Shown here one piece after another: positions 438 through 24,265 of a stretch of DNA of 44,715 nt (within the stretch, counting starts at the first letter, position 1; every line of letters begins with the position of its first letter). Below the pieces are notes generated by a model that was not told the DNA's origin, did no database searches, and saw nothing but the letters and a program-made list of their open reading frames with translations. This DNA is from a virus (lineage: Duplodnaviria > Caudoviricetes). The stretch covers positions 1-44,715 of IMG/VR virus record IMGVR_UViG_3300037755_000740; one strand, given 5' to 3'. The position numbers were made by a program, and so were the translations under genes.

Positions 438-454
438 GAAGGGAACACACAATG
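438..454 (+). promoter_or_regulatory. Start-associated extended RBS motif (variant copy)
   Basis: GAAGGGAACACACAATG directly before the ATG at 452. Confidence 0.7.
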
Positions 455-619: not shown

Positions 620-695
620 CCATCAGCCAGACCATCGACATCGCCCGCGGTCTCACGTGGGCGGTTGTCGCGACTGCAACACGGAAGGGGACACG

Positions 696-953: not shown

Positions 954-1156
954 GCCTCGAAACCGATGCGTGGGTTGATCAGGCCTACGCTTGCAACACG
1001 CCAGCCGTGGTGCCGAGTGAGTATCCGGCACCACGGCCAGGTTTCTACCGTTGCAGTGACTGCGGGCGGAATCACGCGGATGGTGACCGTGACACGTTCA
1101 ACGTCAGTCGGTACGTGAATGATGTACTCCACACGATGGAAGGGAACGCACGATGA
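950..1156 (+). CDS. Small hypothetical protein with CxxC
   Basis: GTGA/ATGA overlaps with both neighbours. Confidence 0.6.
   Translation: MSLETDAWVDQAYACNTPAVVPSEYPAPRPGFYRCSDCGRNHADGDRDTFNVSRYVNDVLHTMEGNAR
1139..1155 (+). promoter_or_regulatory. Start-associated extended RBS motif GAAGGGAACGCACGATG
   Basis: Identical 17-mer at 1604-1620. Confidence 0.8.
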
Positions 1157-1603: not shown

Positions 1604-1620
1604 GAAGGGAACGCACGATG
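1604..1620 (+). promoter_or_regulatory. Start-associated extended RBS motif GAAGGGAACGCACGATG
   Basis: Identical to 1139-1155; precedes ardA. Confidence 0.8.
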
Positions 1621-2667: not shown

Positions 2668-2696
2668 TTGACAAGGCTTGACAGCTCCGATACGGT
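2668..2696 (+). promoter_or_regulatory. Sigma70-type promoter P1
   Basis: TTGACA-17 nt-TACGGT followed by CCGCGACC. Confidence 0.7.
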
Positions 2697-2915: not shown

Positions 2916-2945
2916 TTGACAGGTGCCGCGAGCGAGGCATACGGT
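2916..2945 (+). promoter_or_regulatory. Sigma70-type promoter P2
   Basis: TTGACA-18 nt-TACGGT followed by CCGTGACC; near copy of P1. Confidence 0.7.
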
Positions 2946-3497: not shown

Positions 3498-5229
3498 CGC
3501 GCTAGTGACACCGCGCGTATGGTCATCCACCCCACAGCAGATCGGACGGACATACGTGGGATCGGATCTCTACTCACTCGAAGACGATGTTGACCTTGTG
3601 CTACCGGACTGGGTGTCCGAGCTCAGGGACCATCAAGGCGACGCTGTTGATGCAATTGTCGACGCGTTCAAACGAGTGGACGTCGTGTTCTTGGACGCAC
3701 CAACCGGTGCCGGCAAGACGCTGATCGCGGAGATCGTCCGACAACGGATGCAGGCGCGAGCCGCGTACGTGTGTTCATCGATCTCACTGCAGAAACAGTT
3801 TGTTGGCGACTTCCCGTACGCGGCGCTGCTGAACGGAAGACGTAACTATCCAACGCAGGTGATGGACTTCCCCGAGTACAGCGCGGAAGACTGCATCCGT
3901 GACGGCACCGGAGAAGACGCGTACTGTCCGTTCTGCCCTGAAGTGTTGGACTGCGCGTACGAAGTCGCGAAACGTGAAGCATTGATGGCAGACCTCGCGG
4001 TGCTGAACACGAAGTATTTCTTGACCGTCACGAATCATGTCGGCCAGTTCAATGATCGTGGCCTGGTGATCGTCGACGAGTGCGATGTGCTGGAATCCGA
4101 GTTGATGTCCTTCACAGAGTTTCGGATCAGCGAGTCACGGTTGCGGAAATTGGGTTTGACGGCGCCGAAGAAAGGCAGTCATCAGAAGACCATCGCCGCG
4201 TGGCTGCTGGATGAACTCGTGCCAGCAGCCACGCAGGCAGGTCGTCGTGGTCAGTTGACGATGGCCGGGGATGAGCTCAAGGCTACCAAGGAGAAGAAGG
4301 CGCTATTGAGTTTGATCAACGAGGCCAGGCGGATTGCCGTCGAGTTGAGTGACGATGCCGATGCAGTCGATGAGAACGGTGAACCGGCACCGAAGAACTG
4401 GCTACGCGACAACGATGCCGGCCCGTTGGTGTTGAAGCCGATCCAGGTGAGCAAGTACGGGAAGTTCCTCTGGCCTCACGGCAAGAAGTGGCTGCTGATG
4501 TCCGCGACGATCATCTCATCGGATGAGATGGCAGATTCGCTTGGATTGGACACCACGTACGAAACAGTGACGATGCCCATGACGTTCCCGAAGGAGAACC
4601 GTGAGACGATCGTGGCCGGTGTGGCGAACATGGCGAACAGGTTCAAGGAAGACGAGTGGCCCAAGATGGCACATGGGCTGGAAGCAGTTCTGGACCGACA
4701 CCCCAACGATCGTGTACTCGTACACTGTGTCTCGTACAAGCTCACCGAGTACCTCGTGGGTGAGCTTGGTGGCCTCGAGCGGCCTGTCATCCGCTACACG
4801 GGAACTGCTGATCGAGAACGTGCCCTCAGCGACCTACGACGATCAGACAACGGTGTGTTGCTTGCGCCCAGCTTCGAGAGGGGCATCGACCTCCGCGATG
4901 ACGATTGCCGTGTGGTAATCGTCGCGAAGGTGCCGTTCCCGAACCTTGGTGACGATGTCGTGAGTGCGAGACTGCACACACGCGGGGGACAGGAATGGTA
5001 CTCGGTGCAGACCGTGCGGAGCTTAGTGCAGATGACCGGGCGCGCGGTGAGAAGCAAGGATGATCACGCGACGATGTGGATTCTCGATCAGCAGTTCGTG
5101 AAGAACGTGCTGAAGAAGAACAAGTTTCTCCTTCCCAAGTGGTGGAGAGAAGCGCTACGCATGGACTTCCCCATGCGCGAACTCGTAACACCCAACCAAT
5201 CAGAAAGGAACACCAGTGGCAAACAATGA
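3475..5229 (+). CDS. DinG/XPD(Rad3)-like SF2 DNA helicase
   Basis: Q motif (LRDHQ), APTGAGKT, DECD, MSAT, RGID, VIVAKVPFP, QMTGRAVRSKDD; Cys cluster in the Fe-S domain position. Confidence 0.9.
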   Translation: MTQMLGLDALVTPRVWSSTPQQIGRTYVGSDLYSLEDDVDLVLPDWVSELRDHQGDAVDAIVDAFKRVDVVFLDAPTGAGKTLIAEIVRQRMQARAAYVCSSISLQKQFVGDFPYAALLNGRRNYPTQVMDFPEYSAEDCIRDGTGEDAYCPFCPEVLDCAYEVAKREALMADLAVLNTKYFLTVTNHVGQFNDRGLVIVDECDVLESELMSFTEFRISESRLRKLGLTAPKKGSHQKTIAAWLLDELVPAATQAGRRGQLTMAGDELKATKEKKALLSLINEARRIAVELSDDADAVDENGEPAPKNWLRDNDAGPLVLKPIQVSKYGKFLWPHGKKWLLMSATIISSDEMADSLGLDTTYETVTMPMTFPKENRETIVAGVANMANRFKEDEWPKMAHGLEAVLDRHPNDRVLVHCVSYKLTEYLVGELGGLERPVIRYTGTADRERALSDLRRSDNGVLLAPSFERGIDLRDDDCRVVIVAKVPFPNLGDDVVSARLHTRGGQEWYSVQTVRSLVQMTGRAVRSKDDHATMWILDQQFVKNVLKKNKFLLPKWWREALRMDFPMRELVTPNQSERNTSGKQ

Positions 5230-5947
5230 TGTCGACCTGTACGAGCTCGAAAGTGGGCTTCAGGACTTCGACTACGTGATGAAAGGTTGCCGGTTCGCAA
5301 CCGACCAGGAGTACAACAACGGCGAGACGGTACTGCTGATCGTCGAAGACGGCCAACAGACCCTCGAAGACGGCGAAGTGTCGGAGAAGCGACAGTTCTG
5401 GCCGTGCGGGAAGGGCTGGGAAGCCGCTGAAGGTGGCAAGTCGGTACGTCACGAGAGTGGCAAGGTGCGAAAGTTCAACGCGAACAGCGCGGTGGGCAAG
5501 CTGTTGGCATCTGCACTCGAGGCCGGCGCGGGCGGAGTCATGCGAAAGCGTGGCAGCCCGATGGAAGTCAGCACGTGGGAAGGCCTCGACTTCCACATGA
5601 CGAACAAGCAGGAGACCTACAAGATCGATGGCGAGGAGCGCAACGTCAACCGAACCGTGGTTGACAGCTTCAACGGCGAAGGCAAGAAGGCTGCTGCGAA
5701 GAAGACAACCGCGAAGGCCAAGAAGGCTGACGTTGACGAAGATGAGAGTGGGGAAGCATCGACAAACGGTGCCATCCCGAAGGCGCTGCAGATCAAGCTG
5801 AAGAAGAAGGCAGCCGAAGTGCTGGCGGCTGGTGGCGACTTCGACCAGTTCATGGAAGATGCTTTCGACATCGACGGGGTGAGTGGGAACGATGAGGCCG
5901 AGGGGAGTCTGGAAGAGGTCTGGGCTACCGCGGGCGGAGAGGCTTAG
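5216..5947 (+). CDS. Hypothetical DNA-metabolism protein, possible ssDNA-binding protein
   Basis: Beta-rich N-terminus, K/A-rich linker, acidic C-terminus; lies between helicase and exonuclease; function inferred from position. Confidence 0.45.
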   Translation: MANNDVDLYELESGLQDFDYVMKGCRFATDQEYNNGETVLLIVEDGQQTLEDGEVSEKRQFWPCGKGWEAAEGGKSVRHESGKVRKFNANSAVGKLLASALEAGAGGVMRKRGSPMEVSTWEGLDFHMTNKQETYKIDGEERNVNRTVVDSFNGEGKKAAAKKTTAKAKKADVDEDESGEASTNGAIPKALQIKLKKKAAEVLAAGGDFDQFMEDAFDIDGVSGNDEAEGSLEEVWATAGGEA

Positions 5948-5960
5948 TAGGCCGAACAGC

Positions 5961-6073
5961 CGGGTTGCACACGGACGAACGGTACGCGAAGATGCCATAC
6001 AAGGTCGTCCGTCCGACCCGTGCACCGGCCCACCATCGAGAGTTGCGTTCCCTTCACTCGATTGGTGGGCCGG
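5961..6073 (+). ncRNA. Putative two-hairpin antisense sRNA; loop of hairpin 2 is complementary to the GAAGGGAACGCA RBS motif
   Basis: Intergenic; stem CCGGCCCACCA-TCGAG / CTCGA-T-TGGTGGGCCGG; loop contains TGCGTTCCCTTC. Confidence 0.5.
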
Positions 6074-6106
6074 ATCGCGCCTTAGAGGAAGACGGACAGG
6101 ACGGAC

Positions 6107-6376
6107 ATGAGCAACGACGACCGACGAGGAAGAGGCGTACACGATTGCCCTTCTTGTCGATGCGGGTCTGCTGCCAGGGGCCGACCAGTCATGGCCGGAA
6201 CACCTGAGAAAGCTGCCTGCCCCGCGCGAAATCACAACTGCCGATGCCAGCTCGAGCCGCACACCGGACCACACGTCTGCACGTGCGGAGGAGTGTGGCG
6301 TGACGGGATCGCGGGATGGTTGGTTGAACCCATCGACGTCTGGTGGGACCACATCACAGAGGAGCGACATGGGTGA
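6107..6376 (+). CDS. Cys/His-rich hypothetical protein
   Basis: CPSCRC, CRCQLEPHTGPHVCTCG. Confidence 0.6.
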   Translation: MSNDDRRGRGVHDCPSCRCGSAARGRPVMAGTPEKAACPARNHNCRCQLEPHTGPHVCTCGGVWRDGIAGWLVEPIDVWWDHITEERHG

Positions 6377-7316
6377 CGACCGGCCGACCGTGTACCAAGA
6401 AGACGGGAAGTGGGTGTTCCGCGCGAGTGGGGTGTGGCGGTGTGACCGTGAGCTCTGGGCGCACATGAACGGTGTGCAGCCCGAGGCGACACCTGACTGG
6501 TTGCAGGAGAAGTTCGACCAAGGCAACGAGGGTGAAGACAAGATCATGGACTACGCGGAGCACGTGCTCGAGGTGCCCGTGTACGGCCGACAAGACGAAG
6601 GCGAGCTGAAGGTCGGCAAGTCGGCTGTGATCAGGTTCCACCCTGACGGCCGCACTGACACTGTGCTGGTCGAAGCGAAAACGATGGCCGAGAAGACGTA
6701 CATGACGACGTGGCTGAGGAGCGGATTGAAGGGCTTCCCCGGGTACTCGGCACAGGTCGCGGTGATGGCCGAAGCGTTGGGTGTGAACTCGGTGTTGATG
6801 GCGATCGGCATCAAAGACGACGCGGGGAAGGTGAAAGAGGTGAAGACCTTCTCCTACGACGTGGGGAAGCTGCCCGTCACGGTGAAAGACGTGAAGAAGA
6901 AGATCATGCGCGTGATGCGGTACGACGAGATGCCGAAGTGTTCGGTGGATCAGTTCCCCTGCCCGTTCGTGTTCCTGCACGACGAGAAGGAGATCATGGT
7001 CAGCACGGACGAGATGCTCGAGCTGTACGCACAAGAAATCCACGACTGCCGTGACCGAAAGAAGCGCGCCGAAGACGAGCTCAAGAACTGGCAAGGGCTG
7101 ATGACGAAGCAGCTCGACACTCACGACCTGAAAGGCCAGAAAGTCACCGCGGGGAAGTGGGAGATCACCGACGTTTTTTTTGTGAAGAAGAACGTAGGTC
7201 TTCTGGACTATGGACGGATGAAAGAAGATGGAGTGGACGTAGAGAGTTACCGCGGTGAGCCGAAGACGGCCGAGACGCGGTACCAGACGGTGAAGGAAGT
7301 AAAGGACCACGCATGA
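6369..7316 (+). CDS. Cas4/RecB-like PD-(D/E)xK exonuclease
   Basis: GAGGAG RBS before ATG 6369; RASGVWRC, GNEGE, HPDG, VEAKT, YSAQVAV, C-terminal C...CPF. Confidence 0.8.
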   Translation: MGDDRPTVYQEDGKWVFRASGVWRCDRELWAHMNGVQPEATPDWLQEKFDQGNEGEDKIMDYAEHVLEVPVYGRQDEGELKVGKSAVIRFHPDGRTDTVLVEAKTMAEKTYMTTWLRSGLKGFPGYSAQVAVMAEALGVNSVLMAIGIKDDAGKVKEVKTFSYDVGKLPVTVKDVKKKIMRVMRYDEMPKCSVDQFPCPFVFLHDEKEIMVSTDEMLELYAQEIHDCRDRKKRAEDELKNWQGLMTKQLDTHDLKGQKVTAGKWEITDVFFVKKNVGLLDYGRMKEDGVDVESYRGEPKTAETRYQTVKEVKDHA

Positions 7317-8981: not shown

Positions 8982-9205
8982 TGATTGATACACCGGCACC
9001 ATTCACCGGCCCCATCTTCCGCAACGGCCACCTGAGGTGCAACACTTGTGACTGCCCCTTGACGCAGGGCATCCACAACATCGACGACGCGTGCGCGTGT
9101 CGTTGTCACGAAGCACCGCGTCTGTACCGTCGTCTAGCGAGGGAGCCTATGTGCCCACCAAGCAAATCACTCGAGGAACAGGGATCGTCCGAGCAACAGT
9201 CGTAG
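8981..9205 (+). CDS. Small Cys-rich hypothetical protein
   Basis: TGATG coupling; CNTCDC, CACRCH. Confidence 0.55.
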   Translation: MIDTPAPFTGPIFRNGHLRCNTCDCPLTQGIHNIDDACACRCHEAPRLYRRLAREPMCPPSKSLEEQGSSEQQS

Positions 9206-9711
9206 GAGCCGCTGTCATCGCGGTCTGCACGTTGGGGTGGAAGTTGAGCATCCCCGACGCCGACCCGCAACGACGGACCGAAGCGACCGCCGAGAGAAGA
9301 GAACCAAGTTGGACAGAGTGGCGAATGAGTTTGCCTACAACGACGACGACTACGACGTTGCCACCTCCCCCACCGACGACGGTGAGTACACCGACCCCAA
9401 CGACGCCTGCCTCAAGTACCCACCACGAACATCCGGAGACCCAATCTATGAGCCATTCCGGTGAGTGGGACGGCTCGGGAACACCTTGCGCGATCCCGCA
9501 GTACATCTGCGACCGCGAAAGTGGTGGCGACCCGACCGTTTACAACCAACAGGGTTCGGGTGCCAGTGGGAAGTACCAGGCGATGCCGGGGACTTGGGGC
9601 GGGTACGCGGGATACGCAAACGCAGCAGACGCGCCAGAAGAAGTGCAAGACCAGTGGGCCGCGGAGTTGTGGGATGGCGGTAACGGTTGCGCGCATTGGT
9701 CCGCCTGTTAG
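9151..9711 (+). CDS. Secreted/membrane-anchored Rpf-like (resuscitation-promoting factor) lytic transglycosylase
   Basis: N-terminal hydrophobic helix, Pro/Thr linker, ICDRESGG (catalytic Glu), ASGKYQ..PGTW, AADAPEEVQD, terminal W..C; GTG start with GAGGGAG RBS. Confidence 0.85.
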   Translation: MPTKQITRGTGIVRATVVGAAVIAVCTLGWKLSIPDADPQRRTEATAERREPSWTEWRMSLPTTTTTTTLPPPPPTTVSTPTPTTPASSTHHEHPETQSMSHSGEWDGSGTPCAIPQYICDRESGGDPTVYNQQGSGASGKYQAMPGTWGGYAGYANAADAPEEVQDQWAAELWDGGNGCAHWSAC

Positions 9712-9735
9712 CCGACAAGAAAGAAGGGGAACCAC

Positions 9736-11294: not shown

Positions 11295-11393
11295 TGCGAC
11301 GTCACTGGATCGAGCACGAGTAGGTCACCTTACCCATTGCCTCGAGCTCGTGTCCGCGCCACGATAAGCAACCCAACAAGTGAAGGGAACACC

Positions 11394-12107
11394 ATGAACG
11401 CGATCAAGTATCTGAAGACAGTGATCGGTGCCGTGATCCTCGCCGTAGCAATTGCTGGACTCCTCGCCATCGGCGTGATGAACGCAGGCGCCACCGGTCC
11501 CGGCACGCACGAGACCAACGGCACCGAGGACTACACCGGTCTCGAGTTCTGCGTTCCGATCACCGGCGAGCTCTGTGGCCCCGAGGGTCTCGGCCCGCCG
11601 GTCGAGGCCCCACATTTCGAGACCATCGACGAGGTGTCGAACCTGTGCATCGACCCCCCGTCCTTCGTGGACATCACGTTCCGGTCGAGCGACGGTCAGG
11701 TCATCGTCAAGAACTACGACGGTGAGTACCAGTTCCACGGTGTGTCGCACACCTGCATCCCCGTCAACCCGCCGGTCTGCGTGGACGACACGAAGGATGT
11801 CCACATCGAGTGGTGGGCAAATTGGAATATCGGTGCGGGCGACTCGGAACGTCTGGTCATCGACATCGACTGCACCCCTGAGCCTCCTGTCCCGCCGGTC
11901 GAGCCTCCGGTTGAGCTTGCTCCGCCTGTCGTAGAGACCGCGATTCCGGTGGAAGGCGAGACCCCTGCTCCTGCCGGCACACTGCCCATCACGGGCTCGA
12001 ACACACCCGAGATGATCCTCACCGGTCTAGGTCTCCTGGCTGTCGGCTTGGCAGCTCGGCACTTCAGCCGGAGTGAGAAGCGTTCTGCGCTGGAAAAGGA
12101 GGCGTAG
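11394..12107 (+). CDS. LPxTG cell-wall-anchored (sortase substrate) surface protein
   Basis: Signal peptide MNAIKYLK...NAGA; Cys-containing domain; Pro-rich stalk; LPITG + hydrophobic helix + basic tail; GAAGGGAAC RBS. Confidence 0.85.
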   Translation: MNAIKYLKTVIGAVILAVAIAGLLAIGVMNAGATGPGTHETNGTEDYTGLEFCVPITGELCGPEGLGPPVEAPHFETIDEVSNLCIDPPSFVDITFRSSDGQVIVKNYDGEYQFHGVSHTCIPVNPPVCVDDTKDVHIEWWANWNIGAGDSERLVIDIDCTPEPPVPPVEPPVELAPPVVETAIPVEGETPAPAGTLPITGSNTPEMILTGLGLLAVGLAARHFSRSEKRSALEKEA

Positions 12108-23949: not shown

Positions 23950-24265
23950 CTATGGCCTCGTGCTCGATGAAGAAACGGAGCTGGTCCCGTTCCTCAGAAT
24001 ACGCCGCGATGTCGCCTTTCATGCGGATGATGTCATCAAGATAGTCGCCCACGTAGGCATCCGCCTCCCGGTCCCGACCGGAGACCGAAGTCTCATTGGA
24101 CTGGGCGAACACCTCCCGTCGCTTCTGCTTCTCCGCGACCTGGGTCATGGCGAGCTCACGGTGAAGGGAAAGGAGCTCAGCGGTGACGGTCGCGAGGCGC
24201 GCGCGGGCATTGGCCGGAGACTTCAGCGCGTAGCGGAAGTCGTTGAGCCAGTCGCCTGTCCTCAA
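23912..24265 (-). CDS. Coiled-coil hypothetical protein
   Basis: TTGA overlap with the holin stop; high GC3. Confidence 0.6.
   Translation of the reverse strand: MRTGDWLNDFRYALKSPANARARLATVTAELLSLHRELAMTQVAEKQKRREVFAQSNETSVSGRDREADAYVGDYLDDIIRMKGDIAAYSEERDQLRFFIEHEAIDAVVDQLPPADS

Follow-up and report, generated by a model that had tools for sequence, protein, structure and literature searches.

A phage intergenic hairpin with a loop antisense to a shared ribosome-binding motif: a candidate trans-acting RNA and its counterparts in distant relatives

The hairpin and its genomic surroundings

The hairpin was located at positions 6025-6073 (plus strand) of a 44.7-kb virus record from an uncultured phage (44,715 nt, the whole record; 61% GC), referred to below as the window. 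The left 14 kb of the window consists of rightward genes, with small genes and ardA first, followed by a DinG-type helicase, a conserved 243-aa protein, a nuclease with a Cas4 domain, and an AAA protein. The capsid, portal and terminase genes are leftward. The left-end genes were taken as early because of their position and the presence of ardA. An actinobacterial host is suggested by a transglycosylase-like domain and the LPITG tail encoded by gene 11394. The transglycosylase-domain protein is encoded at 9091-9711, and both it and the LPxTG-type surface protein (11394-12107) lie amid non-structural genes. No integrase or repressor family was detected among the 45 window proteins scanned. We also observed that the left genome end (120-260) has a long stretch in which purines and pyrimidines alternate as GTGC/GCGT repeats.

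The gene directly upstream of the hairpin (5216..5947, plus strand) encodes the 243-aa protein, which is conserved in the family. The product is likely SSB-like, as its confident model is beta-rich and gave weak OB-fold/SSB matches; none of these reached E ≤ 0.001, and the atlas and fold searches gave no firm name. Downstream of the hairpin lies the gene of the Cas4-domain exonuclease (6369..7316, plus strand), which was used as a synteny marker. A promoter-like site, TTGACA..TACGGT (2916..2945, plus strand; a second one at 2668), precedes the run formed by gene 2991, the helicase gene and gene 5216, and we infer that it is the source of the hairpin-carrying transcript; a stricter promoter scan did not list it. 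The motif TTGACAG-N5-ATACGGT was seen upstream of replication genes both in the window (2678-2696) and in the relative G016 (L018 ~4280-4300), and is possibly a regulator site or an origin element.

The intergenic hairpin reported in an earlier note on this sequence, with a stem of 11 bp + 5 bp, is indeed present. The whole 159-nt intergenic stretch (5948-6106) was predicted to fold into two adjoining stems with an energy of -69.5 kcal/mol (z -3.6), and none of 200 shuffled sequences was equally stable. The 16-nt loop of the second stem (6041-6056) was mostly open in the predicted fold, the majority of its bases being unpaired with p > 0.89 and four being weakly paired (0.22-0.28); the predicted cost of opening 6044-6058 was 5.6 kcal/mol. 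Promoter and terminator scans revealed neither a promoter nor a U-tail in 4800-6600, so that neither element would account for the release of a discrete RNA from 6025-6073. Rfam gave no match at gathering score in the window, and a search of 5000-7000 at E ≤ 10 returned two chance-level matches to other families, none at the hairpin site.

The adjacent upstream hairpin (5959..6023, plus strand) has a 3′ arm, 6007-6014, complementary to GGACGGAC, the ribosome-binding site (RBS) of ORF 6107 (6099-6106) and of gene 2991 (2975-2990). It is possible that this arm is a second, masked anti-RBS element or a cis switch; the alternative fold that uses it was 3.8 kcal/mol less stable. At ~24150-24185, in what is likely a coding frame of the structural arm, the minus strand has a weak hairpin whose loop is a near match to the RBS motif matched by the main hairpin; it was left out of the counts.

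Motif copies and predicted targets

The sequence GAAGGGAAC occurs four times on the plus strand of the 44.7-kb window, every time at Shine-Dalgarno (SD) spacing before a start, and its single exact antisense copy is the hairpin loop. The complementarities listed in the earlier note were all confirmed: GAAGGGAACGCA, present at 1139 and 1604, has its reverse complement at 6044-6055, that of AGTGAAGGGAAC at 11379 is 6047-6058, and the 9-nt core before gene 452 is present at 438. The loop is therefore matched over 12 nt spanning the SD at three starts (1153, ardA at 1618, and 11394) and over 9 nt at a fourth (452). The motif is asymmetric, stands at RBS spacing before non-structural genes and is conserved past the SD; two copies share 18 nt. 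The four exact 9-nt copies all precede rightward starts, and the overall count is 4-6 copies.

We ranked the 78 starts of the window by duplex energy together with the opening energy of the target. The top five were, in order, 1618, 11394, 696, 1153 and 452. The best predicted target is thus ardA (1618-1935, PF07275, E 3.9e-12), with a 12-nt motif at 1604..1615, followed by gene 11394-12107, with a 12-nt motif at 11379..11390. The product of the latter had no Pfam match; its sequence reads as a signal-like start, a Pro-rich linker, LPITG and a hydrophobic tail. Rank 3 was taken by gene 696-953, whose motif at 684..692 includes one G-U wobble, rank 4 by gene 1153-1530 (12-nt motif, 1139..1150) and rank 5 by gene 452-619 (55 aa, no family; 9-nt motif, 438..446); all of these motifs are on the plus strand. 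The earlier expectation that the motif genes would rank first thus holds for these five. Gene 9736, proposed along with 696 as a target pairing through G-U wobbles, fell outside the top 14 and is a weak candidate, preceded by the variant GAAGGGGAAC (9723..9732, plus strand). In GAAAGGAAC, the RBS of gene 5216, a single position is mismatched to the loop.

With 1153 and ardA, the duplex is predicted to cover the start codon as well, and its stability exceeds that of the separate RNAs by 1.7 and 3.7 kcal/mol, respectively; at 1153, the pairing can reach the start codon if the inner stem opens. The hairpin stayed closed in the cofolds with 452, 696, 9736, 11394 and 5216, as the method keeps it closed whenever pairing is confined to the loop. 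Overall, the loop is predicted to offer an accessible seed complementary to several translation starts, a feature of trans-acting base-pairing sRNAs.

The earlier note had argued that targets on the same strand would pair in trans. A strong hairpin at 1959-1993 separates the four left-end targets from the hairpin at 6025-6073, and these would therefore be paired in trans. Transcript readthrough, however, would permit pairing in cis, which is relevant to the downstream genes 9736 and 11394; the pairing with 11394 could be of either kind. The chance estimate of one in 1.7e7 random positions had to be given up. For a fair figure we shuffled the loops of the four strong hairpins of the window: 40 of 100,000 trials reached at least four 9-nt start matches, a figure that applies to a window itself picked from many.

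Motif-loop pairs in distant relatives

Cultured phages gave no DNA match, and their helicases were at most 30% identical to that of the window. Single-protein scans of IMG/VR found no relatives, and the upstream 243-aa protein had three homologues, on short contigs. As no close relative was found, the loop and motif were studied in distant relatives. A helicase profile search yielded 45 IMG/VR and 80 metagenome loci with 28-60% identity. We analysed 33 IMG/VR contigs whole or nearly so (11 of the 45 IMG/VR matches were not extended to whole contigs) and excluded metagenome loci below 6 kb and nine near-duplicate loci. The final set comprised 66 sequences with 2631 starts, as called by a simple self-trained gene caller, and 246 strong intergenic hairpins (242 without the window); many of the contigs are incomplete, and weaker structures would escape the strong-hairpin criterion. 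In five relatives (G022, G024, G025, G026 and G031), the helicase match was split by a stop near residue 357.

With the window excluded and loops oriented with their upstream gene, we found 15 own-genome start matches of 10 nt and 29 of 9 nt, compared to ~2.27 and 9.0 expected from matches to the starts of other genomes. In the reverse-orientation control, also without the window, the counts were 0 vs ~1.44 at 10 nt and 7 vs 6.9 at 9 nt. After removal of the strongest genome, G030, there were 18 matches vs 7.9 at 9 nt and 7 vs ~1.86 at 10 nt (reversed, 6 vs 6.2 and 0 vs 1.3, respectively). As motif-sharing genes cannot count as independent, a genome-level permutation was added; it gave 4/47 at 9 nt and 3/39 at 10 nt (P 1e-4 in both cases), and 1/47 and 0/39 in the reversed orientation. 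At 8 nt the result was 5/31, but the reversed control was likewise enriched (3/31, P 5.5e-4). One of these three reversed matches is a hairpin between divergent genes (G004), another overlaps a start (L082), and the third (G016) is without explanation. The signal is visible only when orientation and own-genome motifs are taken into account: the first scan, with exact stems and without gene calls, found 50 anti-SD vs 40 sense-SD loops, i.e., no signal.

The matching hairpins are non-homologous and lie at differing places, and both motif and loop vary by phage, which makes this a recurring design rather than a single RNA family. G030 has a hairpin at L198:3357-3404 and the motif AGGAAAGGAACA, found at 11 starts at 9 nt. 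In G023 the hairpin (L178:3815-3852, minus strand) matches GAAAGGTGG, and G016, syntenic with G023, has an identical loop core. G017 carries two separate hairpins, L019:5479-5524 and L145:4780-4819 (minus strand), which match CAGGAGATCA and GGAGATCCAC at 4/5 of its motif genes. The hairpin of G028 (L190:5123-5157, motif GGAGATGAGA) is followed by a U-tail. That of G005 (L006:12510-12546, motif AAGGGGAA) lies between the SSB-like and Cas4 genes, i.e., in the same position as in the window. Positions outside L019 and L006 were hand-converted from re-oriented coordinates. Promoter-like sites lie upstream of two of these hairpins, at a distance of 32 nt in G023 and 69 nt in G030. Four relatives have their matching hairpin among the leftward genes of the structural arm.

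The motif-loop design is a minority among the relatives. Where a 9-mer is common to at least three starts, a matching strong loop was found in 3 of 19 relatives and was absent from 16. When we scanned for the 17-nt start motif, 27 loci were found, 25 of them single-copy, and none had the antisense 9-mer within 10 kb. The multi-copy contigs G035 (63% complete, six copies of the window's own motif) and G036 (30% complete) had no strong matching hairpin, and neither did G004, which is complete and has 13 motif copies. In the early genes of G004 (L005), the sequence common to the 13 starts is AAGGGGTAAG, and two antisense copies lie in a divergent intergenic region that lacks a strong hairpin. In G017, we also found matches to RF02276, the Type II hammerhead ribozyme, that exceed the gathering score (L019:690-753 and 2710-2771), with a third look-alike at ~1617-1675. 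They lie directly upstream of motif-tagged early genes and could split the early transcript into single-gene units.

Proposed mechanism, alternatives and known systems

We propose, as the probable reading, that the hairpin works in trans as an anti-RBS RNA and damps the genes tagged with the motif, which are presumably for the most part early. Transcription would begin near 2916 and pass through the helicase and the 243-aa SSB-like gene. The hairpin is likely the 3′ end, a stabiliser or a processed fragment of this replication-gene transcript, and its stem would resist 3′ decay. The loop would then pair in trans with the SD of the motif-tagged mRNAs (452, 696, 1153, ardA and 11394), which is predicted to block ribosome loading and hence translation. 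At 1153 and ardA, loop-first pairing might be followed by strand invasion over the start codon. Repression would grow as the replication transcript builds up, resulting in a delayed shut-off of the first-expressed genes, and gene 5216 would be spared by the mismatch in its own RBS. The timing may differ between phages, since 11394 lies downstream of the hairpin and four relatives carry the hairpin in the structural arm. Of what the earlier note had put forward, the anti-RBS reading gained partial support from the target ranking and from those distant relatives whose loops match the differing motifs of their own genomes beyond those of others; a stable, repressing RNA and an early-to-middle switch are its conjectural parts.

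It is unlikely, in our view, that the structure is a plain terminator or mRNA-stabilising hairpin whose loop match is due to chance or is a neutral remnant left after a gene start underwent a small inverted duplication. In favour of a plain hairpin following a highly expressed gene, a strong hairpin within 300 nt after the SSB-like gene was found in 22 of 51 sequences, and only three of the 51 have an anti-RBS loop there (the window, G005 and, weakly, G006). Moreover, the antisense strand resembles an entire start region, CGATG included, and the window was chosen from a very large scan. Against such a hairpin stand the excess seen in relatives picked without regard to the feature, the orientation bias of this excess at 9-10 nt, and the two independent matching hairpins of G017. 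We consider it improbable that a phage protein binds the motif, in DNA or in mRNA, with the loop copy being one more DNA site, such as an operator or cruciform. This would explain the many motif-bearing phages that have no antisense hairpin and the reverse-orientation matches at 8 nt, e.g., G016 4173, and there is a precedent for the ambiguity in the start-associated sequences (SAS) of Cluster K mycobacteriophages, for which the pages of PMC3203893 cited here leave open whether RNA or protein is the binder. Yet the exact sense copies all precede starts at SD spacing. In addition, a site in double-stranded DNA would not be expected to favour the orientation opposite to local transcription, whereas we counted 15 vs 0 matches at 10 nt.

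The loop might also pair with the motif for a purpose other than timing within the phage's own cycle, namely superinfection exclusion or lysogeny-like silencing of an incoming genome. The model for this is c4 RNA, in which, according to the relevant part of PMC5320573, the loops occlude an RBS and set immunity specificity. Like immunity types, motif and loop vary by lineage, and the genes that a second genome would require first on entry are ardA and those of the left end. However, the scan of the 45 proteins returned no integrase or repressor family, and the hairpin sits within the replication gene run, outside any immunity region; we regard this explanation as quite improbable. Finally, the earlier note had itself raised the alternative that the loop serves, on the minus strand, as the RBS of a 30-residue peptide with its start at ATG 6036. 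A 30-codon open frame is present (5944..6036, minus strand), but its ATG lies hidden within the stem, the motif precedes it by 13 nt, compared to 8 nt in real starts, and no minus-strand promoter was found. Opposite-strand ATGs at SD spacing are missing from most relatives' hairpins, including those of G030, G023 and G017. It is unlikely that this frame is a gene, and the alternative as a whole is very improbable.

The proposed anti-RBS RNA can be compared with several known systems. Cuckoo RNAs have C-rich loops, and repeated C-rich or CCUCCUCCC loops characterise the 6C/cuckoo class. The analogy to this class drawn in the earlier note is apt as regards loop pairing with several mRNAs, which is predicted here, but the window has a single loop of another sequence and no Rfam match. 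The 6C RNA of a high-GC Gram-positive host is reported (PMC6486639) to pair with multiple targets through its C-rich loops without a chaperone. The RNAs of this class are host-encoded and conserved, with generic loops, whereas the RNA of the window would be phage-encoded, with a lineage-specific loop directed at the phage's own genes. The c4 RNA of P1 and P7 (RF01695) resembles the window in having a loop complementary to a phage RBS; it is processed from a longer transcript by an RNase P cut and, in the same part of PMC5320573, has three stem-loops, two of whose loops (a′ and b′) pair, with immunity exerted at one operon. In contrast, the fold in the window comprises two stems with a single pairing loop, the motif is spread over five scattered genes, and there is no Rfam match. 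By analogy, the hairpin would work like c4 or 6C RNA, yet it is neither.

The switch-off of early protein synthesis by phages is known mainly from T4 proteins. In T4, the RegB endoribonuclease and the RegA repressor shut off early mRNAs as a group through a shared start sequence (PMC3014915, in the portion cited). These are proteins, whereas the RNA of the window would act by pairing and, if our reading is true, would be the RNA counterpart of RegB/RegA. In the literature searched, with subscription papers mostly outside its scope, we found no report of a phage RNA repressing several of its own early genes via a shared RBS, and no precedent for a self-targeting RNA regulon that spans several genes and uses a private barcode. 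The phage RNAs listed in the part of a 2025 review cited here (PMC12197685) are single-target or host-directed. Orthogonal loop-RBS pairs would also be useful gene-control parts for Actinobacteria.

We tentatively extend the proposal to a wider idea, which we hold as possible rather than probable: that many phages carry a private RBS barcode on a group of genes and one antisense copy in the loop of a later transcript, and that each lineage rebuilds this RNA-only shut-off circuit at other places and with other sequences, which would explain the SAS of Cluster K, at least in K1. The SAS were first described in 2011, and PMC11373665 (2024) states in the passage cited that their function is still unknown; they also occur in Cluster EF Microbacterium phages (PMC7302621, same limit). 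As in the window, non-structural genes are preceded by a private RBS motif that is over-conserved, and four phages have a single inverted copy located away from starts according to the cited part of PMC3203893, whose supplement reportedly places inverted sites in Angelica and CrimD. The differences are that the window phage is unrelated and has another motif in fewer copies (4 exact, compared to 11-19 in Cluster K). The SAS of Cluster K also have upstream ESAS inverted repeats.

We found that the lone inverted SAS forms a hairpin loop in both Anaya (between genes 96 and 97) and Adephagia (58.66-58.72 kb, flanked by genes 92 and 93), and in the latter, late transcription starts between the same two genes (PMC11373665, passage cited). 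The stem is held across nine aligned Cluster K phages, with a double change in 4 of 16 pairs, which supports the layout for part of Cluster K. Among 16 Cluster K phages, the loop is exact in five, a drifted pyrimidine loop in five and absent from six. In Ekdilam and Syra333, the two drifted phages checked, the SAS is unchanged, and no such hairpin was found in AnnaSerena, which has 10 SAS, or in TM4 and Pixie, where SAS are present. The retention of SAS despite drifted or missing loops, and its presence in AnnaSerena, argue against the anti-SAS loop as the whole explanation. The matching layout of Adephagia makes the SAS puzzle testable by one small mutation in a cultured phage of M. smegmatis. 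At the Cluster K late start, we also observed a structured leader of ~250-300 nt with several hairpins, located after a TTGAC..TAGACT promoter-like site (L207:48690-49070, L214-L225 and L255), which is likewise present in phages that have no anti-SAS loop.
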